IMG/VR virus record: IMGVR_UViG_3300030095_002502
Location: 1 to 58,559 of that record
Length of the DNA stretch: 58,559 nt
Reading direction: 5' to 3' (one strand)
From: a virus
Taxonomy: Duplodnaviria > Caudoviricetes
In this document: piece by piece, positions 14,923 to 58,559 of the stretch
How positions within the stretch are numbered: position 1 is the stretch's first letter
Layout of the letters: the number at the start of each line of letters is the position of its first letter
Notes under the pieces: model-generated
The model's database searches: none
The model's input: the letters and a program-made list of their open reading frames with translations, nothing else
What the model was told of the DNA's origin: nothing
Position numbers and translations under genes: made by a program

Positions 14923-16788
14923 TTAAATTTCACATTTATCGCCAACACAAGCATACTCAGCCTTACCTTGGGTATTGTCTGAATTCTCATATTGAGACAA
15001 ATCTGTATAATTAATTACGGGAAGCTTCTTTATAAGCCTTTCGTAGGTTCTAGCGTCAATCTCTTCATATGGAGCCAACTTATAATGACCACCATCATAC
15101 GGTAAGAATGATACACCATTAATAATATCCCAGTTCTGATATACCCAGTTTCCAACTTCAAACCATTCGTCATCTCTCACATACACAGTCATGCTAGCAT
15201 TGTGTTCACACCAATTATGTTGTAAATTTTTATAATGTTTCAACTGGTCTAGTGCTGTTACATCTTTGCGAGTTATACAATTCTCAGGAGATTTGACAGG
15301 GAACTCTAATACCCACGTAGAAGCAGTATCTTTATCTTGTCCTACTTCTGGAGTTGCCTTTATACCACTGTCTTTCATCAATCTAAACAGAGGGTCGTTG
15401 GCAGATATCCTATATCTACGTATGTAGTGTTGTGAATAACGTGGGTGGACACCTGATGCAGAATCCACTAACTGTGAAACTGTACCAGATGGCTTGACAC
15501 AAGTGGTAGCCGCTGGCATTTTTGTACCAAGTATGGTAGATGCTTTGCGAGATATGCGCAAAACACGGCTTTTAAGGGCCTTTAAGGCGTCCGAGGTCAA
15601 TACCGAGGGGTTATCCATCTGACCAGTCAAACTAACTCCTAGAAGCGCTTCTACGTCACAGTTCTTTTTCCACGAATCTCTGAGATATGGGAAGTATGTG
15701 AACGAGCTCTGTATAACACCGAGCCATGTAGCAGTCTCAACCTTATCTAAAAGGGTGTCTAAATCGTCCTCAGCTCTAACAACCACTTCACTTAAGTTGC
15801 AGAACTCCATATCCCTAAGCATTATTTCGCCACAAGGGTTAGTGCCTTGGATTAATGGAGCATATCTGCGAGATGGAGCTTTCTTCTGTGCAGCATCAAG
15901 ATTAAAGATGCCTCTTTCCCCTGTGCCTGATAGAGCTAGTGCTGCCCATTCTTTTAGAAATTCAGCAGCGGTTGGCTTTTCTCTGAATATAGCACTGTTG
16001 TTTGCCATAGCTCGCTTGATAGGGAATGGCCATTCTTTTGCATGACGCATATCTTTATCATTAATATCACTGAGAGATATTTGAGAACTACGTCTTACCC
16101 CACCTACTACCACTATCTCTGCTATCTGATTACATATATCGTGAGCTTCTAACGTAGTAAGTTTACGTCCTTGTGCGTTGTGCATTGTTTCACGAATGAA
16201 ATCGTGTAACTTAATTAGTGGAGCTGGTCCAGATGCGCGACCTCCCATAGTGTTTAGACGTGCGCCTTCTAATCGTATTAGTGAATAATCAAAGTAAATG
16301 TTTTGACCATCGTATAGATTATTCATTAACATCTTTACTGAGTCAGCCCATCCTGCTTTAGAATCAAAGATAGGTATAGTATCTAAACCCCTACCTGATT
16401 TGATAACAGGTATTACTGGAAGTTTATCTACCTCTTCTTTTTCTACTGAGAAACCAAATCCAGTTCCACACATTAAAATATATAAACATTCAGCGAATGC
16501 TTCTACTGTATTAATTTTAGCAAAGGAGCAATTATATATACAGGTATTATCAAACTTAGCAGCAGGCCCAGCTGCCCATAAGAAACGCATAGAGGGCATT
16601 ACTGCAAACTCAGACATATACTTCCTTATCTTGTTAACAGTTTTCTCTGGTATATCTGGTCTTTCTGAAATTATAAAACTAATAAATCTCTCTATTGTTT
16701 CTGGCCAATCTTCTCTACGATTCTCTTCTTCTATCCAACGTGAATACGTTCTCTTATAAATAAATTCTGATACTTGATTTTTAAACAT
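14923..16788 (-). CDS. nrdJ: class II (adenosylcobalamin-dependent) ribonucleotide reductase
   Basis: TNPCGEI, FCNLSEV, TTCVKPSGTVS, VVGGVRRS motifs and a C-terminal Cys pair (CVGDKC). Confidence 0.93.
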   Translation of the reverse strand: MFKNQVSEFIYKRTYSRWIEEENRREDWPETIERFISFIISERPDIPEKTVNKIRKYMSEFAVMPSMRFLWAAGPAAKFDNTCIYNCSFAKINTVEAFAECLYILMCGTGFGFSVEKEEVDKLPVIPVIKSGRGLDTIPIFDSKAGWADSVKMLMNNLYDGQNIYFDYSLIRLEGARLNTMGGRASGPAPLIKLHDFIRETMHNAQGRKLTTLEAHDICNQIAEIVVVGGVRRSSQISLSDINDKDMRHAKEWPFPIKRAMANNSAIFREKPTAAEFLKEWAALALSGTGERGIFNLDAAQKKAPSRRYAPLIQGTNPCGEIMLRDMEFCNLSEVVVRAEDDLDTLLDKVETATWLGVIQSSFTYFPYLRDSWKKNCDVEALLGVSLTGQMDNPSVLTSDALKALKSRVLRISRKASTILGTKMPAATTCVKPSGTVSQLVDSASGVHPRYSQHYIRRYRISANDPLFRLMKDSGIKATPEVGQDKDTASTWVLEFPVKSPENCITRKDVTALDQLKHYKNLQHNWCEHNASMTVYVRDDEWFEVGNWVYQNWDIINGVSFLPYDGGHYKLAPYEEIDARTYERLIKKLPVINYTDLSQYENSDNTQGKAEYACVGDKCEI

Positions 16789-21219: not shown

Positions 21220-23439
21220 CTATATCCAAGACATCAAACTCTGTTGTTTTTTATCCAATAAAGTGATAGGGGGTTTTTTCTTTACCCAATCAGCTAATTG
21301 AAACTTTTGTAGTAAGGTACTTATAGTATCCCAATAGTATCTTATATCTACTTCATCTATATCCTTCACAGTGGACTCTAACTTATAACCATCTTTACAC
21401 TTGATATAATAATATGTAGTGCCTTCAGATGGAATAATACCAATCTCTTTACCTTGGTCCATCAAAGTTAAAATCAAATCTGTTTCGGATTTATAGTCTT
21501 CTCTCTTACGACCCTGACTCTTACGCATAACAAAATCAGATAGCTCATACTCCTGTAAATCATATAGTTTATCTATAAAGGTAGGAGTTATAGTGTTGTT
21601 AATTCTATTATTTATAACCTTTTCTAAGACTTTAAGATAGAACTTAGACCTACTTGTAGCTTTGAATGTACTACCATGTTTAGTTAAAGAACCATCTTCA
21701 TTACGTAATACATAGTTACCTACTTGTAACCATACACCTTCCTTAAAGTAGTCCTTATCCATCGCAATATGTTCAGACTCAGCATTAGGAACAACATGTT
21801 TAAATAACATCCTTAATCGTTTGGTTAACCATTGTTCATCCACATCCACATTAGTATTAATCCCATCTGTATGTACATATACCACAGCATCTTCTCCATA
21901 TCGGCTACGGATAATATCCACGGCCGAGAGAAGTAACCAACGTGCCGTTGCCGTGATAGTAAGACCAACACCCATGTCACCATAAGAGATATAAGGATTA
22001 GCGTTTGCACCATAGAAAGTATTCACCATTATTTTAAGAGCATCGGATTTGCTCTTATCTTCTTTCGTTGAGCCAAGTTTATAAGGCTTTCGCATTTCTT
22101 TGAACTCCTTACACATGTTATATAGACAACTCTTCCTAGAGGTATCTATTTTAATCTTTAGTCTTTTACCTACTCGGTTATCAGGGATATAAAGAATGTT
22201 ATCTTTAAATTCTAAATCCTCAGTATAGTCTTCATATCCTACGATTTGTGTAGTATCTGGACCTAAATTAAGTGCCATCGCTATGGAAGGGTAGAAAGAA
22301 CTAAAATCTACCTTCACATTCCTAGCATGAAATCCGGGGCGATAAAGCTCTATGTGGGCAGCTTGATAGTTACCCCTGTCTGCTTTATATATCTCCGGAT
22401 GTCTTTCTCTATTCTTATCAAGCGTTACTATGCCTTGCTCGAATAAGCTCCTTCCTTGTAATATTTTAGTTATATAACTAGATGGAGCATTGACATATGT
22501 TGCCAGTGGAACGCATAAAGTTTCTGCGATATACTGAATCTGAGGGAAGTAGTGATTAAACAGATACATAGTTGCGTCTACATCACTAAGGACGTAGTCG
22601 TGTATCTCTTCAATCGGGTAGTCCAGTAAGTCATTGTTAGCAAAGTCGAGCTCGATAGGTTCGAGACCGAAGTTTCTAGCAACACTCTTCAGACCGCGTG
22701 GTATGCCTGATAGGGAGTAATCTAGGCGTGTCCATCTCAGTAAATCGAGAACTATGCGTCCTCCAGCTTGCATCTTAAGTTCTTTTTGATTCTCGGGGGT
22801 CTCCCAACCCCACTCTGTGTTATCTCTGTTAAGTATCTTTTTGTACCCTTTTAAGCCATGATAGTTAGCTCTATGTAATATCTGAGGTATATCATACCCC
22901 ACAAGGTTATAACCACACATAATGTCTGGGTCATAATCATTGACATAAGCAGCAAACTTCAGTAAAACATCTCTGTCATCTTCACCATCCCATAGAAATA
23001 CCTCACGCTCTCCAGAAGACGTGACTATACCTATAGCAACAACTGGGTAATCTTCACCAAAGGGAAAACTACCATCAGGAGAGTGAGTTTCTATATCAAA
23101 GACTAATGTCTTTACATCATCAGTATTAGGAAACTGACCAAAGAACTCAGGGTGTTCTATACACAACCTCTCCATCAAGGCTTCACGTCCACCATCATAA
23201 AGCGCATGAGGCGGCACGGCATCTCTCTTAGGAACATATTCATGTTTTGAGAGCTTAACGTTCTTATCACTAGCAACTAATCTATACTCCTTACCCTTAT
23301 CATCTTCGGTGAAGTAATAAGGAACATAAGGACTGGTAGCTGCTTCGGTAGAACTATTACGATATATCTTTACTTTTAAAGAACCATCTCTTAAGTCTAT
23401 GGTTCTATGGTTTACTGTGGCTATAAGGGGTACTTTCAT
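21220..23439 (-). CDS. polB: family B DNA polymerase
   Basis: Exo motifs FDIET, GYNLVGYD, YVLSDV; Pol motifs DFSSFYPSI, KIMVNTFYG, YVHTDG. Confidence 0.95.
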   Translation of the reverse strand: MKVPLIATVNHRTIDLRDGSLKVKIYRNSSTEAATSPYVPYYFTEDDKGKEYRLVASDKNVKLSKHEYVPKRDAVPPHALYDGGREALMERLCIEHPEFFGQFPNTDDVKTLVFDIETHSPDGSFPFGEDYPVVAIGIVTSSGEREVFLWDGEDDRDVLLKFAAYVNDYDPDIMCGYNLVGYDIPQILHRANYHGLKGYKKILNRDNTEWGWETPENQKELKMQAGGRIVLDLLRWTRLDYSLSGIPRGLKSVARNFGLEPIELDFANNDLLDYPIEEIHDYVLSDVDATMYLFNHYFPQIQYIAETLCVPLATYVNAPSSYITKILQGRSLFEQGIVTLDKNRERHPEIYKADRGNYQAAHIELYRPGFHARNVKVDFSSFYPSIAMALNLGPDTTQIVGYEDYTEDLEFKDNILYIPDNRVGKRLKIKIDTSRKSCLYNMCKEFKEMRKPYKLGSTKEDKSKSDALKIMVNTFYGANANPYISYGDMGVGLTITATARWLLLSAVDIIRSRYGEDAVVYVHTDGINTNVDVDEQWLTKRLRMLFKHVVPNAESEHIAMDKDYFKEGVWLQVGNYVLRNEDGSLTKHGSTFKATSRSKFYLKVLEKVINNRINNTITPTFIDKLYDLQEYELSDFVMRKSQGRKREDYKSETDLILTLMDQGKEIGIIPSEGTTYYYIKCKDGYKLESTVKDIDEVDIRYYWDTISTLLQKFQLADWVKKKPPITLLDKKQQSLMSWI

Positions 23440-23558
23440 AGTTTCTTATATTCTCTTAACAATAAGACATCTAGTATCTTATCTAACACTTCTCTTATCT
23501 TCTTGAGTTCCGTTATAGTTCCCGGAAACCCACGAGTGGTAAAGTCTTTATCACTCAT
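23436..23558 (-). CDS. hypothetical protein (40 aa, not in ORF track)
   Basis: MSDKDFTTRGFPGTITELKKIREVLDKILDVLLREYKKL*; overlaps both neighbours' start/stop. Confidence 0.55.
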   Translation of the reverse strand: MSDKDFTTRGFPGTITELKKIREVLDKILDVLLLREYKKL

Positions 23559-23904
23559 CTTCTTTTTCTTCAGGTGTACTCCACCCAGCCTCTTCTCTAT
23601 ATGCAGCCGCTTGTTCAGGTGTCATTCTTTGAAAGAGTTTATCAATATTATTTGTCATTAACTCAGACACTTTGATACCATAGACATCACATAGTCTGGT
23701 GAGATACCATAGTACATCACCCATTTCATCTATGATTAAGTCTGTGTTATCTACGTGGTCTCTTATCTCTTTCTTAAATGCTCCACCAACTTCACCGGCT
23801 TCGTTCATTAAACCTATCATTAGGTATTCTTTTTCTCTACGCTTAGGATACTTCGCAGTTCTGCGAGTGAAATCCATATACGTAGCTTCTACTCCTGTTA
23901 CCAT
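23551..23904 (-). CDS. MazG-like NTP pyrophosphohydrolase
   Basis: GLMNEAGEV...KKEIRD...DEMGDVLWYL...NIDKLFQR. Confidence 0.88.
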   Translation of the reverse strand: MVTGVEATYMDFTRRTAKYPKRREKEYLMIGLMNEAGEVGGAFKKEIRDHVDNTDLIIDEMGDVLWYLTRLCDVYGIKVSELMTNNIDKLFQRMTPEQAAAYREEAGWSTPEEKEDE

Positions 23905-24227
23905 ATATTTAATTCCTCTGGTATTATTTTCTTTCTTATTATCCAATTCCTTTCCGCAGGTAAGTATCTATATACTAAATCTGCTTTTTCATTTTCTTGA
24001 ATAGTCCAAGGTTTAATAAGTATCAGGTCATTAACTCTGACCCACATACGTCTTTTAAACTTTCCTCCTATCCTTATCATACGTGTATGACCATCTGCAC
24101 ACATCGCTGTCATTCTTGACCCCCCTTGCATCTCCATTACAACTGCAAAAAGTTCACCTCGTTTAGGTAGTCTAGCTCTTTTTACTTGACCATCTTCTAA
24201 CAATTTCTTTGATTTCTTTTGAGTCAT
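23898..24227 (-). CDS. eif1a: archaeal translation initiation factor aIF-1A
   Basis: RLPKRGELFAVV...GG...CADGHTRMIRIGGKFKRRMWVRVNDLILIKPW...KADLVYRY. Confidence 0.92.
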   Translation of the reverse strand: MTQKKSKKLLEDGQVKRARLPKRGELFAVVMEMQGGSRMTAMCADGHTRMIRIGGKFKRRMWVRVNDLILIKPWTIQENEKADLVYRYLPAERNWIIRKKIIPEELNIW

Positions 24228-25665
24228 AGTCTCCTTCTGCTTTTCTTAGGAAGTCTCCTTCTATATCTTTGCCCTCATACGTTTCAACAAATAAATAATC
24301 TTTATGTGTCTTGAAAGGTTTAGGTGCACTTTCTTCTACTTCTTTTGCGCTCTTTGCTCTCTCACCCAATTCAATGTTGTCCCCGCTAAACGGGTCAACA
24401 AGCTGGATACAGCCACAACTGCGCCCAATGTACTCACTAGCCACTTCAGGCCAGTTAGTTCGTACAAACTTTTTTGTTTCTTCAATTAGCTCACTCCAAT
24501 TTATTTTTGCTACGGGTTCATCTATCAATGGACTCTTGTAATACATACGCTTACCTTTGTCATCATCCATCTCTAGGAAACCTGTCATCACCAACCCCAT
24601 TAGTATAGGGTCTAGCTTAGTGAATGGTAAACCAACAGCCTTAGCTGCTTTCTTAATTTCATTAGTAGACATTCTTATGGTGTCTCCATCTGCAAAACCA
24701 AATCTATCTAGTCTAGTGTCTGGAAACAGTTTAAGTATATCAGTTCCATGACTTGGCATATGCAAACACTCCTCTACGAATGAGTTAAGATATATACGTA
24801 ACCCTAACCAATTATGTTTAGGAGTTACTAAGCCATACCTTACACCATCCTTACTTACCTTAAGTATTTCATCTGGATAAAATCTAGCAACAGCATTGAT
24901 TAATCTCAGAAGGTATTGAACCTTAGACCTAGAAACTGGGAAAGCACTAGGTATAGCTTCGAATAAGAAGGGAGCACATGGATTCTTTAGAATCATAGCT
25001 TCTTCACTATCTCTTCTAACAACGGCATCTAATATATGTTTTTGTAAACCGCTTATCTCTGAGTCAGTCATAGTAGTGATAGTAGACTTAGGAACAGCAG
25101 CATCAAGTAGCTTATGTTTTACTACTCTTTCAGTCTGCGCTACCGTAGGATTAGTATGCATAATCATACACCTCCTTTCTAACTCAGCATCAAAATAAGA
25201 ACTACCCTTATCATTTTCTACTGCTACACACATAAAAACATATTTAGGATTTAATGTTTGTGTAATAGTTTCTTTGATAGTTATATCAGTTCTCTTACGT
25301 TGTGCAGCTCTACCATCTCCCCACGTCTTTATTACTTCCATTACTGGTTCAGGTAACTTCTGAGCTTCAGGTATAGCTACAAATCTAGAACGATTTATCT
25401 TATCCATCTCATACCATACAGCTGTCTCAGATAGATGTTCCATCGTATGATAGAACTCTTCTGGTAAAAGACCAAAGATAGCCTCCATGATAACAGTTTT
25501 ACCTGTACCACTGTATGCTTTGATTACAAAGTTAGTGTCTTCTAGTAAGTAAGATAGACACGCTGTAAGTGCGGTAGCATCTTCACCAAGTATAGGATTT
25601 AGAGTGCCGTCTTTCTTTCTTACATTATGAAAGTATCTCGTTAGGTCATGTATTTCGTATTTCAT
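24172..25665 (-). CDS. AAA+ ATPase, probable replicative (MCM-like) helicase
   Basis: Walker A AYSGTGKT, Arg finger ELERR, C-terminal winged-helix-like segment; in the replication module. Confidence 0.6.
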   Translation of the reverse strand: MKYEIHDLTRYFHNVRKKDGTLNPILGEDATALTACLSYLLEDTNFVIKAYSGTGKTVIMEAIFGLLPEEFYHTMEHLSETAVWYEMDKINRSRFVAIPEAQKLPEPVMEVIKTWGDGRAAQRKRTDITIKETITQTLNPKYVFMCVAVENDKGSSYFDAELERRCMIMHTNPTVAQTERVVKHKLLDAAVPKSTITTMTDSEISGLQKHILDAVVRRDSEEAMILKNPCAPFLFEAIPSAFPVSRSKVQYLLRLINAVARFYPDEILKVSKDGVRYGLVTPKHNWLGLRIYLNSFVEECLHMPSHGTDILKLFPDTRLDRFGFADGDTIRMSTNEIKKAAKAVGLPFTKLDPILMGLVMTGFLEMDDDKGKRMYYKSPLIDEPVAKINWSELIEETKKFVRTNWPEVASEYIGRSCGCIQLVDPFSGDNIELGERAKSAKEVEESAPKPFKTHKDYLFVETYEGKDIEGDFLRKAEGDYDSKEIKEIVRRWSSKKS

Positions 25666-25746: not shown

Positions 25747-26436
25747 TTAAATCCATTTCTTTCTCGCTTTCCTTAGGTTTAAGACATTGTTTTCACAGAG
25801 TCTTACTGCATACATCTTTAAATCTTTCTCTGGCATACCCCCAAAGTTATCCTTCAATAGTAAGAATAAATCTATCAGAGACATGGGGTCTCCATCTTTA
25901 TCACTTAAGAAGGTTACAATCTCTTCGGGGACTACCCAAGTATACTCTTGTTCGTCTGAGTTAAATAAGGAGGGCCGGAACTTCTCTGCTATAAATGCGT
26001 CGTTATCAGTTCTTTCTAACATATAACCATTTACAGTTCTACCTGATGATGTTTTGATTTTTGTTCGCTTCATTTCAAATACTACGTCTGTAGGGTTTAC
26101 ATTTTCATCTATCAGTTCAGAGAATACTTTTTGAAAGTGTGTATGTGTAGCTAATGTAGCGGTGAGGTATGAGACTTCTGTCTTACCTCCTCCACTATAC
26201 TGTGACCCATCATGGTATATTCCATAAGTAAATTCATTTATCTTAGGTATATTTTGGTCACAGAATACACAATCACCTTCTCCAGCCCAACACTTGACTC
26301 TACGTCTGGAAGATTGGTTCCAATGTTTTATTCTATGGATTGGGGATATAAAGGCAAATTGCCCTAAAGCTGACATGGATTCTTCTAACCATACTCTTTG
26401 ACTTTTAGGGGATTGAATCCAATCGCTATATCTCAT
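25747..26436 (-). CDS. putative Zn-binding single-stranded DNA-binding protein
   Basis: H...KCWAGEGDCVFC pattern reminiscent of gp32-type SSBs; next to the helicase. Confidence 0.45.
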   Translation of the reverse strand: MRYSDWIQSPKSQRVWLEESMSALGQFAFISPIHRIKHWNQSSRRRVKCWAGEGDCVFCDQNIPKINEFTYGIYHDGSQYSGGGKTEVSYLTATLATHTHFQKVFSELIDENVNPTDVVFEMKRTKIKTSSGRTVNGYMLERTDNDAFIAEKFRPSLFNSDEQEYTWVVPEEIVTFLSDKDGDPMSLIDLFLLLKDNFGGMPEKDLKMYAVRLCENNVLNLRKARKKWI

Positions 26437-26819
26437 TTGATTTTTATATCTTTACCTTTATGTTCCTCAGCCTTCTGGATTTTTATATCTAGAACACCAT
26501 TGTTGAATTTCGCAGTCACTTTTTCTGGATTTAATTCAACCTTAAACTCTTCAGTAAAGCCATAGTCTCTACCACCATCTTCATTAGTGGCAGATACTAC
26601 AACCTTATGAGTGTCTACTGTTAGTTTAATATCTTTCTTATCTATACCGGGCATGTCAACAGTGATAGATATATCACCGTTTCTATCCTCCCAATCACCA
26701 ATACTCTTAGGTTTCTTTACGCTAGTCATTGGTCGATTAGATACAGACATTAAGTCCATCCATGCATCCATTAGTTCTGTCAATGCATCATCCATTGGAT
26801 TACGCTTGACCATGTTCAA
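26433..26819 (-). CDS. small heat shock protein (Hsp20)
   Basis: VDMPGIDKKDIKL...AKFNNGVLDIKI alpha-crystallin signature. Confidence 0.92.
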   Translation of the reverse strand: MNMVKRNPMDDALTELMDAWMDLMSVSNRPMTSVKKPKSIGDWEDRNGDISITVDMPGIDKKDIKLTVDTHKVVVSATNEDGGRDYGFTEEFKVELNPEKVTAKFNNGVLDIKIQKAEEHKGKDIKIK

Positions 26820-27772: not shown

Positions 27773-28007
27773 ATCTATTTCTCTTTAATGCTTTCATTAA
27801 TATTTTATTCTTTCTAGGATTAACGTGGTAATCTATACCACTATGTGCATCTTTGTAGTATCTCACATAACCCATCCAATAATCTCTACAGTTCTCTTCA
27901 GTAGGTTCTAAACCTCTTATCTTACACTTTTCCATTAGTCTTTGAACCATCTTGTTAGTCTTACCTTTAGCCCATATACGGTCAAAGGTGTCCCATCTAC
28001 TACTCAT
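27726..28007 (-). CDS. hypothetical basic protein
   Basis: Likely start MSSRW at 28007 overlapping the upstream stop. Confidence 0.6.
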   Translation of the reverse strand: MSSRWDTFDRIWAKGKTNKMVQRLMEKCKIRGLEPTEENCRDYWMGYVRYYKDAHSGIDYHVNPRKNKILMKALKRNRYDNKRRKKSRRKSSR

Positions 28008-28489
28008 AACTCTTCCTCCCATCTTGTTCCTGTTCTGTCTGGTGTAGACACTTTCCATCTATTGCCTACAGGCCAGTAGTAGGGATATTCTTCTATCTCG
28101 TTTACGTGTTGCATAGCTTCTTCAGGCCAGTGTTTGGCATAGTATACAAAATCTTTACGCATTAGATTGAGTCGGTGTGACTTGTGTATGCGTTCATTAC
28201 CTAACCAGTCAGGATAAGATACCCAACCTTCTATATCATAATGTTTCATTGTATTGTTATACCCTCGTGATACCCATTCGTCTATCATTACGTTAACATA
28301 TAACTTGAGTGCGTTTTGGTATCCGGTCCACATAACAGTGGCGGGGTGGTTGAGCCAACCTTTCTTATCATAGTCAGGTTGCATAGCGTTGAGTAGTTGC
28401 ATACCTTCTACTCTTTGCTTACCAAGACGTTTGTAGTCTAAATATTTAGCAGACTCTTTAAAGTCAGCTACAGGTAGAAACGTTTGCAT
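28004..28489 (-). CDS. pyrimidine dimer DNA glycosylase / endonuclease V-like protein
   Basis: MQTFLP...LDYKRLGKQRVE...GWLNHPATVMW...HKSHRLNLMRKD (MSMEG_6728-type). Confidence 0.85.
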   Translation of the reverse strand: MQTFLPVADFKESAKYLDYKRLGKQRVEGMQLLNAMQPDYDKKGWLNHPATVMWTGYQNALKLYVNVMIDEWVSRGYNNTMKHYDIEGWVSYPDWLGNERIHKSHRLNLMRKDFVYYAKHWPEEAMQHVNEIEEYPYYWPVGNRWKVSTPDRTGTRWEEEL

Positions 28490-32682: not shown

Positions 32683-32856
32683 TCATTCTAATTCCTCCGG
32701 TTTCCATATACCTGCATCCACTATACTCTCAAGCCATCGGTCTTGATATCTCAGTGGCATTTGCATATGTATAATCTCAGCTATCGTAGAGATAGCGTAT
32801 GTCAATGCTTCTATTTCTTGTTTATAGTCTTGTTTTGATTTCATTTTTAACTCCAT
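32683..32856 (-). CDS. hypothetical protein
   Basis: ATG about 22 bp downstream of a TATA box (leaderless-type start). Confidence 0.55.
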   Translation of the reverse strand: MELKMKSKQDYKQEIEALTYAISTIAEIIHMQMPLRYQDRWLESIVDAGIWKPEELE

Positions 32857-32889
32857 TAATATCATATAATTTCAAATTATTTAAAGGTT

Positions 32890-37000: not shown

Positions 37001-37121
37001 TTTCTCACTTTCTCAGTTGTTTGTGGGGCTGGAACTTAACATAGTTCTCAGCTTATTTAAAGGTTTGGGTAGGTGCTATACGCTTAGCTACTCCTACCCT
37101 TATGCCTTTGTCAGTTAATCT

Positions 37122-37928: not shown

Positions 37929-38100
37929 GTTTTGACTCCGGCTTTACCGTTTCCGGTATTTAAGAGAAGGTTTCAAAGTATTTAAAGGTGCCGGTCGTTT
38001 TTGGGTGTTAAACATATAAACTCGTGCTTAGTTGTTTCTACCCCATTTTCCGCTCATCATCCGCAGAAATCGGGGGAGCTTTAATATAGAACCCCCTTCC

Positions 38101-39635: not shown

Positions 39636-39872
39636 TTATTTTATTTGAACTCCATAGGATTTAATATCAGAGATATAAGTGTCTCCGTATTCGAATTCTC
39701 CGTAAGTCATATCTGACTTAACCGCACAATACCATCTGGCATATGGATTCTTAGCCTCGTTCTCAGGAGCTTGGTATTTCTTTAATACTCTCCACTCAAA
39801 CCCGGAAGGGCCACTCCAAACCTCGTATGGATTGTCTAACTTTCTCGTTTTACCGCATTCGTTTTTAGTCAT
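39636..39872 (-). CDS. hypothetical phage early protein
   Basis: ORF track; TATA about 22 bp upstream; GGGGGC/GCCCCC hairpin downstream. Confidence 0.75.
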   Translation of the reverse strand: MTKNECGKTRKLDNPYEVWSGPSGFEWRVLKKYQAPENEAKNPYARWYCAVKSDMTYGEFEYGDTYISDIKSYGVQIK

Positions 39873-40015
39873 AATATACCAATAGCAGGGTTATATTTAA
39901 AGGTTCGCACCCTGATATCACCCCGGCCGCGGGGCCTACTCGTATTTTTTAAGTAGGCGTTTAAGGAGAGCCTCGTTTATATAGGCGTCCCCTAGCTTAT
40001 GCCACATATCAGTTT

Positions 40016-40821: not shown

Positions 40822-40950
40822 TTTTACCTCTATCCTAACTCTAACAAGAGAGTATATAAAGGTTTGTCTCTAAAAGGTATATAAAGGCCGAGGAGCCTTA
40901 TATAGGGTAATATAGAACCCGAACGCGTTTTTTGAAAAAACCGCACTGAT
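40822..40950 (-). promoter_or_regulatory. multi-TATA promoter cassette, copy B
   Basis: 40822-40921 matches 41618-41717 at 94 of 100 positions by hand alignment; includes the SD. Confidence 0.8.
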
Positions 40951-41617: not shown

Positions 41618-41730
41618 TTTTACCTCTATCCTAACTCTAACGACAGAGTATATAAAGCTTTGTCCCTAAAAGGTATATAAAGGTCGAGGACCCTTATATA
41701 GGGTAATATAGAACCCGCTCGTGTTTTTTA
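41618..41730 (-). promoter_or_regulatory. multi-TATA promoter cassette, copy C
   Basis: Near-identical direct repeat of copy B. Confidence 0.8.
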
Positions 41731-42977: not shown

Positions 42978-44044
42978 TGGAGCTTAATACAATGATTAAA
43001 TTAAAAGATTATATTGAACAACCTTTAGTTGATAAAGCCTTAGAAGAAGGAGGCAGAATAGAGCCTCTTATAATACCAAACGAAGAATCAGGCGGACTAG
43101 GATTATGCAACCCGTCAATTCTTAAGATGAAAGCCAAGAGTTCATACTTAGTTAACGTTAGAAACGTATCCTATTACTTACACCACTGTGTAGGTGAACA
43201 GAAATATCAGACACCATGGGGACCCCTAAACTATGTAAGACCTGATAATGACCCTTACCTAAGAACAGATAACTTCATTTGTGACTTCAGTTTAAGAAAT
43301 AACAAACTAACCAACCCGCGAAAGTTAGATACTAGCAAATTCCCTAAACAACCAGAGTGGGACTTTGTAGGATTAGAAGATGGACGTCTAGTAGAATGGG
43401 ATGGTAAGATGTATATGACTGGAGTAAGAAGGTATGCGCCTGACGGTAAAGGTAGGATGGTACTCTCTGAAATAGATATAAGCAGAAAGAAAGTTAAAGA
43501 AGTAAAGAGATATGTCATAGAACCACCGAAAGGGGAAGAAGACGCTTACTGTGAGAAAAACTGGATGCCTATATTAGATAGTCCGTTTCACTACGTGAAA
43601 TGGTCAAACCCTTTACAAGTCGTAAAGGTAGATATAACATCAAGCCAACCTTCCAAACTTAAAGAAACCTATGCATGCGAGTCTACTACAGTATTCCAAA
43701 GTGATGAAACATTAGACTTACAACTAGACCCTCGTGGTGGTTCACAAGTTATACCATGGAAAGATAACACTTATCTAGCTATAGTACACGAATGTGACTA
43801 CTGGCACAATGAAAAGAATGATAGAGATTCACATTACTATCATAGGTTTATGCAATGGGATAAAGATTGGAATCTAATAAACCACTCTCAACCATTTAAG
43901 TTTATGGATGGTAGAATAGAATTCTGTTGTGGTATGGCTATGCACCCAGATAATAATGACGTTTATGTTACATTTGGTTTCCAAGATAACTCAGCCTACT
44001 TAGCTCATATACCACTTGCTGTTATTGAAGACATATGGCTTTGA
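42977..44044 (+). CDS. five-bladed beta-propeller glycosidase/phosphorylase-like protein (GH130/GH43 clan)
   Basis: CNPSI, GLEDGRL, EKNWMP, RGGSQ, IEFCCG, FGFQD. Confidence 0.75.
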   Translation: MELNTMIKLKDYIEQPLVDKALEEGGRIEPLIIPNEESGGLGLCNPSILKMKAKSSYLVNVRNVSYYLHHCVGEQKYQTPWGPLNYVRPDNDPYLRTDNFICDFSLRNNKLTNPRKLDTSKFPKQPEWDFVGLEDGRLVEWDGKMYMTGVRRYAPDGKGRMVLSEIDISRKKVKEVKRYVIEPPKGEEDAYCEKNWMPILDSPFHYVKWSNPLQVVKVDITSSQPSKLKETYACESTTVFQSDETLDLQLDPRGGSQVIPWKDNTYLAIVHECDYWHNEKNDRDSHYYHRFMQWDKDWNLINHSQPFKFMDGRIEFCCGMAMHPDNNDVYVTFGFQDNSAYLAHIPLAVIEDIWL

Positions 44045-45627
44045 AAGAATACTGGAGAGTTACAGAGTGGCCTACGTTAGAAATAACGACGTCCATACCT
44101 AAAGCAGGTTGTATAGTAGACTGTGTGTTTTGTCCACAAAGAGTATTACAAAAAGTATGGAACTCTGAACACTTCACTACAGAAAAAGAAAGAACATTGA
44201 CCCTAGATAACTTTAAGATGGTAATAGATAAATTACCTAAAGAAGTTAGAATTACCTTGTCAGGTTTTACAGAACCTTGGTTAAATAAGCGTGCTACTGA
44301 TATGTTGTTATACGCTCACAGTAAAGGTCACCCAGTATCAGTGTTTACAACTGCCGTAGGCATGTCTCTTAAAGATGTTGAAAGAATAAAGGATATCCCT
44401 TTCTGTGGAGGACCCAATGGTGGTTTTACTTTACATTTACCTGATAAAGAATATAAAGCTAAACACCCAGTCAATAAAAAATACATTCAAGTATGTGAAG
44501 CCCTAAAGAAAGCTAATATACAAAACTTTGCTACGATGGCAATGGGAACAGTACACCCTGAAGTAGAACACCTATACCCAGACGAAGAAGTAAACAAATA
44601 TGAAATGTGGCATAGGGCAGGTAATCTTTTAGGTGAAGCACAACTTAAACCAGAAGTAAAAGAAGTATGGAATGAATTTAAATCTATACTACATGAAAAA
44701 CCTAAGACCTGTGGTTGCATAGAAGACCTTTATCACAATATACTATTACCTAATGGTGAAGTATCTTTATGTTGTATGGATTACAACTTAGAAGAAATAA
44801 TAGGTAACCTATTTACTCAAGAGTATGATGACATTCTACCTAAGCCAAATACTACATTTGATATGTGTATGCGTTGTGAAAACGGTATCAACCCAAAGAA
44901 CTTAACTACTGTAAGGGTTGCAGAAGAAGATAAAATTACTTCATTCGACCCTGATAATTTTTTATTGCCTGAATCAATGGTACAATACTTAGACGTATCT
45001 ACTAAACCATTCTTAGTTCCTGAATCTGAAGTTATACAATGGTGTAAGAAATTTACTAACAAAGATAAAGACTTTGTAGACATAGGGGCCCACATTGGAA
45101 CCTATACTTGGAATTTAGCGCCTGACTTTAAACACACACACTCCTTTGAACCTACCAAGGTTACATACAATTTTTTATGTTCTAATATATTAATTAAAGG
45201 ATTATCAGATAAAGTTGATGCCTATAACACAGCTTTAAGTGAATCACAAAAAATAATGACTTTCTATGAAAGAAGTCCAGATGGAGGAACCAATGGATTA
45301 GACTTAGATTTCTACGATGGTAAATGGACTGGTAATAACCAAGATAGCTACAATGTAGAGGTTAATACGTTAGATGATTATAAACTAAGAAATGTAGGAT
45401 TCATAAAAATAGATGTAGAAGGATATGAACTGCCTGTTTTACAGGGTGCTATACAGACTATCCAGAACAACGGCTACCCACCTATCTTATTCGAAAGTTG
45501 GCCTTCCAATAACAAAACAAACACAAAACTTAAACACAACCTTTTTAACTACCTATTTGCATTAGGGTATACAATAGGAAGTACACCACACCCAGAAATA
45601 TATATAGCGATAAAGGAATTACATTAA
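44035..45627 (+). CDS. radical SAM/SPASM domain fused to an FkbM-family methyltransferase
   Basis: CIVDCVFC, SGFTEP, LPNGEVSLCCMD...CMRC; then DIGAHIG, SFEP, FIKIDVEGYE. Confidence 0.88.
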   Translation: MALKEYWRVTEWPTLEITTSIPKAGCIVDCVFCPQRVLQKVWNSEHFTTEKERTLTLDNFKMVIDKLPKEVRITLSGFTEPWLNKRATDMLLYAHSKGHPVSVFTTAVGMSLKDVERIKDIPFCGGPNGGFTLHLPDKEYKAKHPVNKKYIQVCEALKKANIQNFATMAMGTVHPEVEHLYPDEEVNKYEMWHRAGNLLGEAQLKPEVKEVWNEFKSILHEKPKTCGCIEDLYHNILLPNGEVSLCCMDYNLEEIIGNLFTQEYDDILPKPNTTFDMCMRCENGINPKNLTTVRVAEEDKITSFDPDNFLLPESMVQYLDVSTKPFLVPESEVIQWCKKFTNKDKDFVDIGAHIGTYTWNLAPDFKHTHSFEPTKVTYNFLCSNILIKGLSDKVDAYNTALSESQKIMTFYERSPDGGTNGLDLDFYDGKWTGNNQDSYNVEVNTLDDYKLRNVGFIKIDVEGYELPVLQGAIQTIQNNGYPPILFESWPSNNKTNTKLKHNLFNYLFALGYTIGSTPHPEIYIAIKELH

Positions 45628-47450: not shown

Positions 47451-47487
47451 GGAAACCTTTAAATATGCGCGTTGTGTAAAATGATAC

Positions 47488-48444
47488 ATGGCGCGCGATG
47501 ATTACGGAGCTATTTCTGTAATCTCTGATGAAGAACGAGAAGCATTAGGGATAGGAGGTAGAAAACCCGATGAAGAAGAAGAAGGTCTTTTTGAGACGAT
47601 TGGCAAAGCTGGAGATAAGCTAGGAGAAACACAATTCGGTAAAAAACTAGGTTCAATATTAACAGTACTTCTTTTAGCTATGTTTGGTAGTGGTACCGTA
47701 GACGTTGGCGTTTTACAAGACATTTTCGGAGGAGAGGAAGAGCCCATATCAAAGGGTGGATGTATGGACGTTTCAGCTATCAATTTTAAAAAGGACGCTA
47801 CTTTTGACAATGGTAGTTGTGTATTCCCTCCCCCTGTTGTGTATGGTTGTACTAACCCTGACGCCGATAATTATAATGCGCAAGCTACCCATGATAATGG
47901 GCGATGTCAATTTCTTGGCGGCCCAATCAATAATAACACGGGTAACAATGAGACCCAGACCAATGAGACCGTTTATGGTTGTATGGACATAGAAGCTCAT
48001 AACTATAATGACCGAGCTGAAGAAGATGATGGAAGTTGTGAATATGAAGACTATGATTGTGCAGCTAACCAAACTTATTTTTATAATGGTTTACAATATG
48101 GAAACTATTCTAGAGAAGACAACTCTTTAAATATTACAGTAGATATAGATACAGATTGTGACCAAGACACATTACCAGTTATGGTTTATTATGATATAGG
48201 TCACGTAAAGATAGAAGATAACGAAACAGTATGGAATGGGTATATGTATAACAATTACTTCTTTAATGTTACTGGATGGGAAAGTAATGAGTACCAGTTA
48301 TCATCAGGACCAGAATACTTTACAGAACCTTATACAGGATGGTATATGGTATATGTAAATTTATACGCCGACTACGATAGAGATGGCGTTTACGATTATG
48401 TGAATTATTTTTACATAGAAGAGATTATATTGGAGGAGGAATGA
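47488..48444 (+). CDS. membrane-anchored protein with three GCxD-type Cys repeats
   Basis: TM helix, then GCMD..AINF..ATFDNGSC, GCTN..ADNY..ATHDNGRC, GCMD..AHNY..AEEDDGSC; leaderless start after TATA 47453. Confidence 0.75.
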   Translation: MARDDYGAISVISDEEREALGIGGRKPDEEEEGLFETIGKAGDKLGETQFGKKLGSILTVLLLAMFGSGTVDVGVLQDIFGGEEEPISKGGCMDVSAINFKKDATFDNGSCVFPPPVVYGCTNPDADNYNAQATHDNGRCQFLGGPINNNTGNNETQTNETVYGCMDIEAHNYNDRAEEDDGSCEYEDYDCAANQTYFYNGLQYGNYSREDNSLNITVDIDTDCDQDTLPVMVYYDIGHVKIEDNETVWNGYMYNNYFFNVTGWESNEYQLSSGPEYFTEPYTGWYMVYVNLYADYDRDGVYDYVNYFYIEEIILEEE

Positions 48445-57073: not shown

Positions 57074-58559
57074 ATGGGAAAGAACGAACTAATTAATGGA
57101 AACCCCGCACAGGGGACTACCAAACCATGGGTTCTCTCTCAAGTCACATCTGGTGCACAGGGAGGAACAGGTGCACAAGGTGGTGACGGACCACAAGGTA
57201 CAGCTGGTACAACAGCATCTCAAGGTACAACTGGTGCACAAGGAACTACAGGAACTCAAGGTACAAATGGTACTACGGGTTCTCAAGGTACTACTGGTAA
57301 CACAGGTACACAAGGTAATACTGGTTCACAAGGTGCGCAAGGAAATATAGGACCTACAGGAGCACAAGGTAATACTGGTTCACAAGGTACTACAGGAACT
57401 ACTGGTTCTCAAGGTACAACAGGTAATACAGGTTCACAAGGAACTACAGGTAATACAGGAAGTCAAGGTGCTATAGGAGCACAGGGTACAACAGGTAATA
57501 CAGGAAGCCAAGGTGCTATAGGTGGTCAAGGTATCCAAGGACTTCAAGGTCTTCAAGGTATACAAGGACTTCAAGGAACACAAGGTACACAAGGTAATCA
57601 AGGAATACAAGGTAATCAAGGAATACAAGGTATTTTAGGACTTTTCGGTGGTAACAGTATAGAATTTAATTATAGTAGTTTTGATATTACCGCTGGTTCT
57701 CCGGGACAAACTAATTTTGGATTTAATATTGCATTGCCCGGTGGTGGAGGTGTACCTAATTACGGTTTAATTTCTAAAGTAGGAATATCTAATTTTGATA
57801 TTAATACTACTGATGTTAGTGATTGGGTGGATTCACTTGATGATGGTACTGGTTCAGTACGAGGACATTTAAGAGTTTTTGAAACAACTGATTCTACTAC
57901 ATGGGTTACTTTTAATATCACTGGAGCTAATGCAGCAGGAGGTGCAGGCACAACAGCGTATGAAGAGCTTCAAGTACAATATGTAGATAGTAATAGTTAT
58001 TTTTCTAATGGTGATGATTGTGTAATTACTTTTGTACAAGCTGGTGCACAAGGAACTGCTGGTAGTACTGGAGGTGGTGGAAGTCAAGGAACTACAGGTA
58101 ATACAGGAAGTCAAGGTGCTATAGGAGCACAGGGTACAACAGGTAATACAGGTTCACAGGGTACAGTAGGTAATACAGGAAGTCAAGGTGCAATAGGAGC
58201 ACAAGGAACAGACGGTGCTACAGGTTCACAAGGAACAGATGGTGCTACTGGTGGAGTTGGTGCACAAGGTATCCAAGGTAATCAAGGAATACAAGGACTT
58301 CAAGGAATACAAGGAATACAAGGTATTAAAGGAGACACAGGAGATACTGGTACTCAAGGTAATACTGGTGCTACTGGAGGCGTAGGAAGTCAAGGAGCTA
58401 CGGGTACTACAGGTAATACAGGTTCACAGGGTACAGTAGGTAATACAGGAAGTCAAGGTGCAATAGGAGCACAAGGAACAGACGGTGCTACAGGTTCACA
58501 AGGAACAGATGGTACTGTAGGTGCACAAGGTATTCAAGGTCTTCAAGGAATACAAGGTA
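57074..58559 (+). CDS. collagen-like fibre protein (runs off window end; absent from ORF track)
   Basis: [14 protein letters not shown]... followed by Gly-X-Y repeats (GAQ, GSQ, GNT, GIQ) interrupted by a globular domain at about 57640-58040; no stop seen. Confidence 0.9.

Follow-up and report, generated by a model that had tools for sequence, protein, structure and literature searches.

Until now, carrying translation factors has been a distinctive mark of giant viruses and huge phages. Giant viruses of eukaryotes, among them Klosneuvirinae and Tupanvirus, reportedly encode eIF1A, and the bacterial homologue of archaeal translation initiation factor 1A (aIF1A) is IF1. Huge phages likewise carry small-subunit initiation factors, IF1 and IF3, for which the available part of the report proposes a role in intercepting or redirecting host translation (Al-Shayeb et al. 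2020, PMC7162821). Among archaeal viruses, the ribosomal protein L21e and Trm112 were reported in haloarchaeal tailed viruses (Liu et al. 2021, PMC8651126), and a 2026 survey of proviruses names a 'translation initiation factor IF1' for five of them (PMC13573593), an item that could stem from a gene at the boundary or represent a related case. Neither source, in its accessible parts, reports a conserved lineage of aIF1A in the genomes of free marine viruses. Here, we show that the minus-strand gene at 23898..24227 of the IMG/VR record IMGVR_UViG_3300030095_002502 encodes a full-length aIF1A and is shared by many related viruses. The record is a linear virus with an estimated CheckV completeness of 83%, and we call the window the whole stretch of 58,559 nucleotides analysed.

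The open reading frame (ORF) starts with ATG and encodes 109 residues. It matches Pfam PF01176 (eIF-1a) over the entire model (all 64 positions; 62 bits, cut-off 30.2; E 4.1e-17), and in NCBIfam it scores above the cut-offs of two models for aIF-1A subfamilies, NF003084 (108.7 bits, cut-off 91) and NF003085 (95.1, cut-off 92). It does not reach that of NF003086 (94.7, cut-off 202), and PHROGs has no family for it. A phmmer search of PDB sequences matched 19 distinct sequences at E≤0.01. The best was the aIF1A of Pyrococcus abyssi (4MNO, E 9.2e-25), with residues 5-105 of the query aligned on residues 5-105 of 4mno_A; the aIF1A of Methanocaldococcus jannaschii (1JT8) scored E 1.9e-21 and eukaryotic eIF1A 1e-12 to 1e-10. 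The viral protein is colinear with solved aIF1A over the full length, including the region C-terminal to the barrel of the oligonucleotide-binding (OB) fold. The AlphaFold model, built on a 32-sequence alignment, has a mean predicted local distance difference test (pLDDT) of 80.6 and shows a predicted OB fold of five strands (26-35, 38-43, 48-52, 68-73, 81-87) with a C-terminal helix (90-98). The basic N-terminal tail is disordered in the model (residues 1-11, pLDDT < 50), and the protein ends in the conserved ..PEELNIW. With this model Foldseek returned 49 matches at E≤0.001, headed by P. abyssi aIF1A, both 30S-bound and free (template-modelling score TMt 0.88-0.90, root-mean-square deviation 1.1-1.4 Å, 41% identity), with eukaryotic eIF1A from 43S/48S complexes next and bacterial IF1 after that. 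The original prediction, made from the sequence alone, of a full-length aIF-1A is confirmed by the Pfam, NCBIfam subfamily and PDB-sequence matches and by the predicted fold.

It had also placed the gene between those for a helicase and MazG, overlapping both, and the ORF coordinates agree. The 5' end overlaps the upstream ORF, which encodes a 497-residue MCM-like protein, by 56 nt. The overlap with the MazG gene is 49 nt if the latter starts with TTG at 23946 and 7 nt if it starts with ATG at 23904; the longer one is favoured because in relatives the similarity to the MazG of the window begins ahead of the aIF1A stop. Family B DNA polymerase (PolB) is encoded further downstream in the same module. 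Viruses carrying aIF1A are common in ocean metagenomes: a collection of 5.8 billion proteins holds 324 clusters homologous to the viral protein (the 120 listed are 64-93% identical to it and 96-132 residues long), and 326 contigs match in one metagenome collection. We examined 31 IMG/VR loci returned by scans and the best 80 of these contigs, i.e. 111 loci, which are not independent since the two sets have some contigs in common (114 loci yielded 95 distinct coding sequences). The scan patterns were built from viral proteins, and distant cellular genes are beyond their reach. At least one flanking gene homologous to those of the window was found in 31/31 IMG/VR and 80/80 metagenome loci. The MCM-like gene was found in 30/31 and 77/80, MazG in 30/31 and 78/80, and PolB in 31/31 and 65/80. 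Where one of them is missing, the locus ends close to aIF1A, save for one distant relative without MazG. Four relatives with a CheckV completeness of 100%, of 69-81 kb, all have the gene.

These data bear on whether the gene is an artefact, i.e. host DNA at the edge of a provirus, the product of a chimeric assembly, or a host gene copied recently as a passenger. One contig among the IMG/VR relatives does have a chimeric appearance. Yet, the same gene order occurs in 111/111 loci, from IMG/VR and from metagenome records of several naming schemes, both neighbours overlap aIF1A, and there is no break in composition (GC content near the gene is 0.37-0.39, as in the rest of the window). Furthermore, viral copies are monophyletic and no homologue outside their clade is more than 56% identical. 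As far as sequences can tell, we give an artefact almost no credence. Because all loci show this same viral neighbourhood, aIF1A is not flanking host DNA, in agreement with the original prediction, nor is it the result of mis-assembly, the first of two findings that had been named as fatal to the prediction. The odd contig, of 31,465 bases (loci L229 and L230), contains two oppositely oriented copies of the region from the MCM-like gene to PolB, of which only one has aIF1A; two related viruses were probably joined in its assembly.

How long have viruses carried this gene? Searching exhaustively through 1.84 billion cluster representatives with phmmer, we obtained 1280 matches at E≤0.001. Only one representative was below 1e-30 (P0144, 63% identical), and it was placed within the viral clade. 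The next is 56% identical and the others at most 50%, save four fragments of 58-84 residues at 55-66%. A quick tree of 167 rows included 26 viral rows (thinned by hand from 35 at <82% identity among 94), two further viral ones, a Micrarchaeota protein and 138 of 150 representatives (the 12 under 95 residues were dropped). It grouped the 28 viral rows and 3 unlabelled representatives in one clade, with a Shimodaira-Hasegawa-like approximate likelihood ratio test (SH-aLRT) support of 97. The viral clade was found again (ultrafast bootstrap (UFBoot)/SH-aLRT 98/86) in a careful tree of 80 rows, comprising the viral rows, 36 of 37 neighbourhood rows (the long-branched P0213 was omitted) and 16 outgroup rows drawn from the opposite side of the quick tree; its deeper branches are unreliable, given 109 columns and a bootstrap that had not fully converged. 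On these comparisons, the viral aIF1A appears to be a lineage that viruses have carried for long, rather than a gene recently copied from a host, since no outside protein among the 1.84 billion representatives exceeds 56% identity. The divergence of aIF1A from the window sequence, measured over loci that are not independent, correlates with that of the MCM-like gene (Spearman 0.57), PolB (0.54) and a neighbouring 229-residue gene (0.72), and not with that of MazG (0.04); MCM-like and PolB divergences correlate at 0.87. This fits mostly vertical inheritance of aIF1A with some exchange.

The phylogeny with Poseidoniales aIF-1A, which had been put forward as a way to assign a host, gave no such assignment. 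A tight clade of long aIF1A with acidic ..DDDDLFG.. tails (P0165, P0201 and others), putatively from Poseidoniales, belongs with the viral clade to the same larger set (support 95 in the quick tree, 94/81 in the careful one). Because the viral clade is not nested within it, the gene does not tell the host. Viral proteins are only about 45% identical to the acidic-tail proteins and stop with ..EELNIW, at the point from which the acidic tail would extend. A scan of species-representative genomes with the viral protein found only a Micrarchaeota aIF1A (47% identity). The ESM Atlas marks two clusters of the viral aIF1A as viral, places the representative P0152 in the coarse taxa Methanobacteriota/Thermoplasmatota, and gave one Bathyarchaeota cluster as a further match to the viral query. 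The tails of several representatives of the acidic-tail clade (P0157, P0174, P0182, P0188, P0196, P0197) read as out-of-frame, low-complexity sequence, which suggests frameshift errors in a repetitive acidic region of metagenome assemblies.

We found 19 family-wide positions, i.e. positions where the viral consensus is at least 90% conserved among 96 viral rows and the same residue occurs in at least 60% of 136 non-viral homologues: P21, G35, C43, D45, R49, R52, I53, G55, R60, W62, R64, D67, P73, W74, Q77, K81, D83, R87 and Y88. They include those of the basic loop GK-K-RR-W-R, which in IF1 and eIF1A faces the decoding site. The loss of ribosome-contact residues was the second finding named as fatal to the prediction; judged by conservation and by alignment to P. 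abyssi aIF1A rather than by coordinates, the family-wide residues are kept. This matters for the idea that an OB-fold protein was recruited to the replication module as an RNA chaperone or as the analogue of a single-stranded DNA-binding (SSB) protein, away from ribosomes. The position of the gene between the MCM-like helicase and MazG/PolB, with overlapping reading frames, would suit such a function, as would the lack of any SSB family among the Pfam matches of the window and of a complete relative of 81,208 bases (G002). However, the full aIF1A architecture is kept, including the C-terminal helix, the terminal motif and the family-wide residues, features that generic binding of single-stranded DNA does not need, and the identity to P. 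abyssi aIF1A is 41%. We regard this recruitment as unlikely.

The gene is under purifying selection. The ratio of non-synonymous to synonymous substitution rates (dN/dS; Nei-Gojobori, own script) had a median of 0.176, quartiles of 0.141-0.214 and a maximum of 0.588 over the 1255 of 4371 pairs with 0.05<dS<1.5 among 94 distinct coding sequences; 3099 pairs were synonymously saturated. These uniformly low values give no sign of an arms race, which speaks against the viral aIF1A being a spare part for counter-defence, insensitive to a mechanism of the host or a competitor that inactivates or withdraws the cellular factor in infection. A divergent, virus-only lineage with fixed substitutions would be compatible with that function, and presence or absence among close relatives is typical of accessory genes of conflict. 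But no anti-defence neighbours were identified, and we know of no defence system aimed at aIF1A. A role in counter-defence thus seems improbable.

How the gene is expressed can be read in part from its surroundings. aIF1A is an internal cistron of the minus-strand replication block, led by a Shine-Dalgarno (SD)-like site that lies within the 3' end of the MCM-like gene. Among relatives, such a site is found 3-10 nt ahead of the aIF1A start in 83/86 distinct upstream contexts, a conservation that may partly reflect the overlapping coding sequence (AEGDY). A search of sequencing runs gave six of unrecorded kind, from three studies, and none recorded as RNA. Some genes of the window seem to start differently. 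The motif ACCTTTAAATA, which resembles a B recognition element (BRE) followed by a TATA box, occurs in 13 copies with at most one mismatch, where 3.6 are expected, and 0/100 shuffles reached 13. Exact copies stand 20-21 nt ahead of the ATGs at 47488(+), 39872(-) and 32856(-), an arrangement of the leaderless type; such spacing is expected for archaeal TATA boxes preceding leaderless genes. Two copies (41657 and 40861, minus strand) have instead a 31-nt spacer with a GAGGT site. In a crude survey of the window an SD-like match was found at 24/54 ORF starts. The prediction that the genome mixes leaderless-looking and SD-led starts therefore holds at the sequence level, through the promoter motifs and the AGGAG-type sites, and the mixture supports a putative archaeal host. 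Many of the copies of ACCTTTAAATA are concentrated in a region of short ORFs at 37-42 kb. The two at 41657-41682(-) and 40861-40886(-) form near-identical tandem promoter pairs, CCTTTATATAC..CTTTATATAC and then TAGAGTTAGGATAGAGGTAAAA(G/T)ATG, a duplicated regulatory cassette preceding a 114-residue and a 55-residue ORF.

Our preferred reading, to which we give a probability of roughly 0.55, is that the gene encodes a functional virus-borne orthologue of aIF1A that would keep or tune initiation capacity during infection. Widespread marine tailed archaeal viruses, with complete records of about 69-81 kb, carry it as a near-core gene of the replication module. The gene would share its transcript with those for the MCM-like helicase, MazG and PolB and be translated from its own SD-like site as an internal cistron, and the protein would bind the small ribosomal subunit of the host at the A site, in the manner of cellular aIF1A. 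Initiation capacity would thereby be kept or raised while host gene expression runs down, and substitutions specific to the lineage may tune the factor further. For Haloferax under infection by HFTV1, the available part of a ribosome-profiling preprint reports that most translation genes fall whereas the ribosome densities of aIF1, aIF5B and aIF1A are sustained or rising (10.64898/2026.09.13.751334), which suggests, by analogy, that these factors may be needed late in infection. We favour supply or maintenance because aIF1A is among the factors sustained or rising in these cells. The viral gene would then mark aIF1A as a step that limits archaeal infection or is contested in it, which fits the Haloferax results.

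The distribution of the gene qualifies this reading. Using the MCM-like gene as an anchor (9-sequence alignment), we found 46 IMG/VR loci, 43 of which cover the downstream site, and aIF1A is present in 37 of these 43. A distant subgroup (L236, L238, L242-L245), whose MCM-like proteins are about 55% identical, has kept aIF1A and lacks MazG at that place. With the capsid gene as an anchor, PF01176 was found in 1/12 records, G002, which is also the sole one covering the aIF1A site; a second record stops within the MCM-like gene. Four observations speak against the preferred reading. First, aIF1A is absent from the site in 6/43 relatives (L218, L220, L225, L227, L229, L239), where a recurrent 151-residue ORF, a 133-residue ORF, other small ORFs or MazG directly takes its place between the MCM-like gene and PolB. 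Second, PF01176 was found nowhere in five of the records lacking it at the site, one of which is 55.8 kb long and an estimated 81% complete. Third, the protein misses the cut-offs of the NCBIfam equivalog models TIGR00523 (90.5, cut-off 102.9) and NF003082 (85.1, cut-off 108). Fourth, at nine positions, including E32, A41, G54, I69, L84, L89, R93 and W109, a residue present in at least 90% of viral copies occurs in at most 15% of non-viral homologues. At position 54 the viral copies have Gly, where 65% of non-viral rows have Pro and none has Gly, and the terminal W109 replaces the Phe found in cells. As far as alignments tell, the viral factor may not behave like that of the host. Hence aIF1A is a common, near-core gene of this lineage and yet a dispensable one, helpful but not essential because some relatives do without it.

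The same nine positions invite another interpretation, which we consider possible if clearly less probable. Extending the original prediction of a bias towards viral mRNAs, a specialised viral aIF1A would compete with the host factor and shift the choice of start site or mRNA towards viral messages, for example between leaderless and SD-led ones. If the host belonged to the Poseidoniales, this would be a tail-less competitor of a host aIF1A with a long acidic C-terminal tail. A genome with both leaderless-type promoters and SD-led genes would suit such selectivity, as would the acidic ..DDDDLFG.. tails of the putative Poseidoniales clade, which viral proteins lack. Redirection of translation has moreover been proposed for huge phages with IF1 and IF3, in the accessible part of that work (PMC7162821). 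But acidic tails are likewise missing from several non-viral relatives in this region of the tree, relatives without aIF1A exist, and the selectivity itself is pure conjecture. To our knowledge, a role of archaeal aIF1A in leaderless versus SD-led initiation is not established. One might speculate further that the long-kept, virus-only aIF1A is a compact, specialised ribosome-reprogramming factor that would take the host A site and alter start selection or aIF5B-dependent subunit joining, acting in a Poseidoniales host as a tail-less rival that favours viral messages. We hold this more specific proposal to be doubtful. If true, a virus would here for the first time have taken over translation initiation in archaea, and the factor could serve as a natural tool to dissect that process. 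Naturally occurring substitutions such as P54G and F109W, together with close relatives with and without the gene, provide material to study the part of aIF1A in leaderless versus SD-led archaeal initiation, and the gene is a convenient marker for the virus lineage.

The features of the window are collected in Table 1. The minus-strand block around aIF1A comprises ligase, RecU, HSP20, the MCM-like gene, aIF1A, MazG and PolB. The window also encodes structural proteins (large terminase, portal, HK97-type capsid, tape-measure protein and tail genes), further proteins of replication and repair (besides the family B polymerase, a class II ribonucleotide reductase (RNR), an ATP-dependent ligase, RecU and a Cas4-like nuclease), HSP20 and a CobS/CobT-like AAA+/vWA pair. 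The 497-residue upstream protein has a Walker A motif. It has no Pfam family, no PDB-sequence match with a 9-sequence profile, and a single PHROG, phrog_12057, of unknown function. Its AlphaFold model (pLDDT 73) matched MCM helicase chains throughout the Foldseek listing (best E 3.4e-10, TMq 0.36-0.41); low TM-scores are expected for a multi-domain model. Because of these fold matches we read it as a divergent MCM-like helicase, which makes the label of helicase in the original prediction reasonable. The PDB sequence search gave nothing useful for the 229-residue neighbour. The window has no tRNA gene. In the complete relative G002, a tRNA-Glu(TTC) gene is found at 74849-74924(-), and among 71 scanned ORFs no Pfam family other than that of aIF1A relates to translation. 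A candidate terminal repeat in G002 was rejected: its first 100 nt recur at 77220 and the sequences diverge beyond, making this a local 100-nt repeat.

Table 1. Position of aIF1A, its neighbours, expression signals and other features in the window.
Feature	Position	Strand	Remarks
aIF1A gene	23898..24227	-	Pfam, NCBIfam and PDB-sequence matches; AlphaFold model
Shine-Dalgarno-like AAGGAG	24231..24236	-	3 nt before the aIF1A ATG, within the 3' end of the MCM-like gene
MCM-like P-loop ATPase (GTGKT), 497 residues	24172..25665	-	AlphaFold/Foldseek; last 56 nt overlap the aIF1A start
MazG-like nucleotide pyrophosphohydrolase	23551..23946	-	PF03819 E 9.9e-8; phrog_229 E 1e-21; downstream of aIF1A
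Family B DNA polymerase (PolB)	21220..23439	-	PF03104 and PF00136; same module as aIF1A
ACCTTTAAATA promoter motif	47455..47465	+	ATG at 47488, 21-22 nt after the motif
ACCTTTAAATA promoter motif	39894..39904	-	ATG at 39872, 20 nt past the TATA element; 78-residue ORF
ACCTTTAAATA promoter motif	32878..32888	-	ATG at 32856, 20 nt past the TATA element; 57-residue ORF, head of the replication block
ACCTTTAAATA, further listed copies	37054-37064, 37979-37989	-	plus 8 one-mismatch copies elsewhere
Squalene/phytoene-synthase-like protein, 200 residues	29952-30554	-	
DenV-type pyrimidine-dimer glycosylase	28004-28489	-	
HSP20	26433-26819	-	
Class II (B12) RNR	14923-16788	-	
Radical-SAM/SPASM-FkbM methyltransferase fusion	44035-45627	+	
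Collagen-repeat protein	57074-58558	+	runs past the window end

Magroviruses share with the window the head-tail module (major capsid protein, portal and terminase), PolB, ligase and nucleases, according to the available part of their description (Philosof et al. 2017, PMC5434244). In the window and the four complete relatives, the Pfam MCM family was found in 0/5 records, the 497-residue neighbour nonetheless folding like MCM in prediction, and DNA_primase_S (archaeo-eukaryotic primase) in 0/5, four of them at a CheckV completeness of 100%. The 71 ORFs of G002 include no clamp, clamp-loader or RadA families; RFC, PCNA and RadA were not searched by name. The chaperonin (thermosome/GroEL) is reported for several magrovirus groups in the same source, whereas PF00118 was found in 0/5 records here. 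Such Pfam-level negatives are weak because the MCM-like fold of the neighbour escaped Pfam, and many magrovirus replication proteins were, in the part of that study available, detectable only by profile-profile search (PMC5434244). In the 'phages' collection, PolB matched only Salinibacter and Microcystis phages, at 22-23%, and a tblastn search with aIF1A gave no match; the collection apparently holds no close relative of the virus.

The gene itself is not new to databases, as gene names of the Joint Genome Institute (JGI) already call these genes 'translation initiation factor 1A'. Full-text literature searches gave no description of aIF1A or eIF1A in an archaeal virus, although supplements could still list the gene. 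The term 'initiation factor' is absent from the main text of three papers on magroviruses, the survey of Caudoviricetes by Liu et al. and a preprint on the Nitrososphaeria virome (PMC5434244, PMC10160649, PMC11706807, PMC8651126 and 10.1101/2025.08.23.671958). It is also absent from the supplementary text of PMC11706807 and PMC10160649, the latter apparently consisting only of lists of auxiliary metabolic genes. The sequence is thus annotated in public data but, as far as our searches of the literature reached, not discussed.

Placed next to the known members of its family, the viral aIF1A is both familiar and set apart. It has the family, length and fold of cellular aIF1A (P. abyssi, PDB 4MNO, 5JB3 and 7ZAI; M. 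jannaschii, 1JT8), with the conserved basic loop and the aromatic, acidic C-terminal end. It differs from them in lying in a virus replication operon and not in a cellular gene neighbourhood, in its fixed G54 for Pro, R93 and W109 for Phe, and in scoring below the NCBIfam equivalog cut-offs. The eIF1A of giant viruses is reportedly a virus-borne member of the same eIF1A/aIF1A family, but one said to occur in eukaryotic hosts and very large genomes, with eukaryote-type tails. It is unrelated to the viral aIF1A clade, for which eukaryotic eIF1A gives matches at 1e-12 to 1e-10 and archaeal aIF1A at 1e-24. Huge phages, in the accessible part of their description, resemble our viruses in carrying small-subunit initiation factors, but theirs are bacterial and come with many other translation genes in genomes of more than 200 kb (PMC7162821). 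Here, a single archaeal/eukaryotic-type factor is near-core in archaeal viruses of ordinary size, about 69-81 kb.

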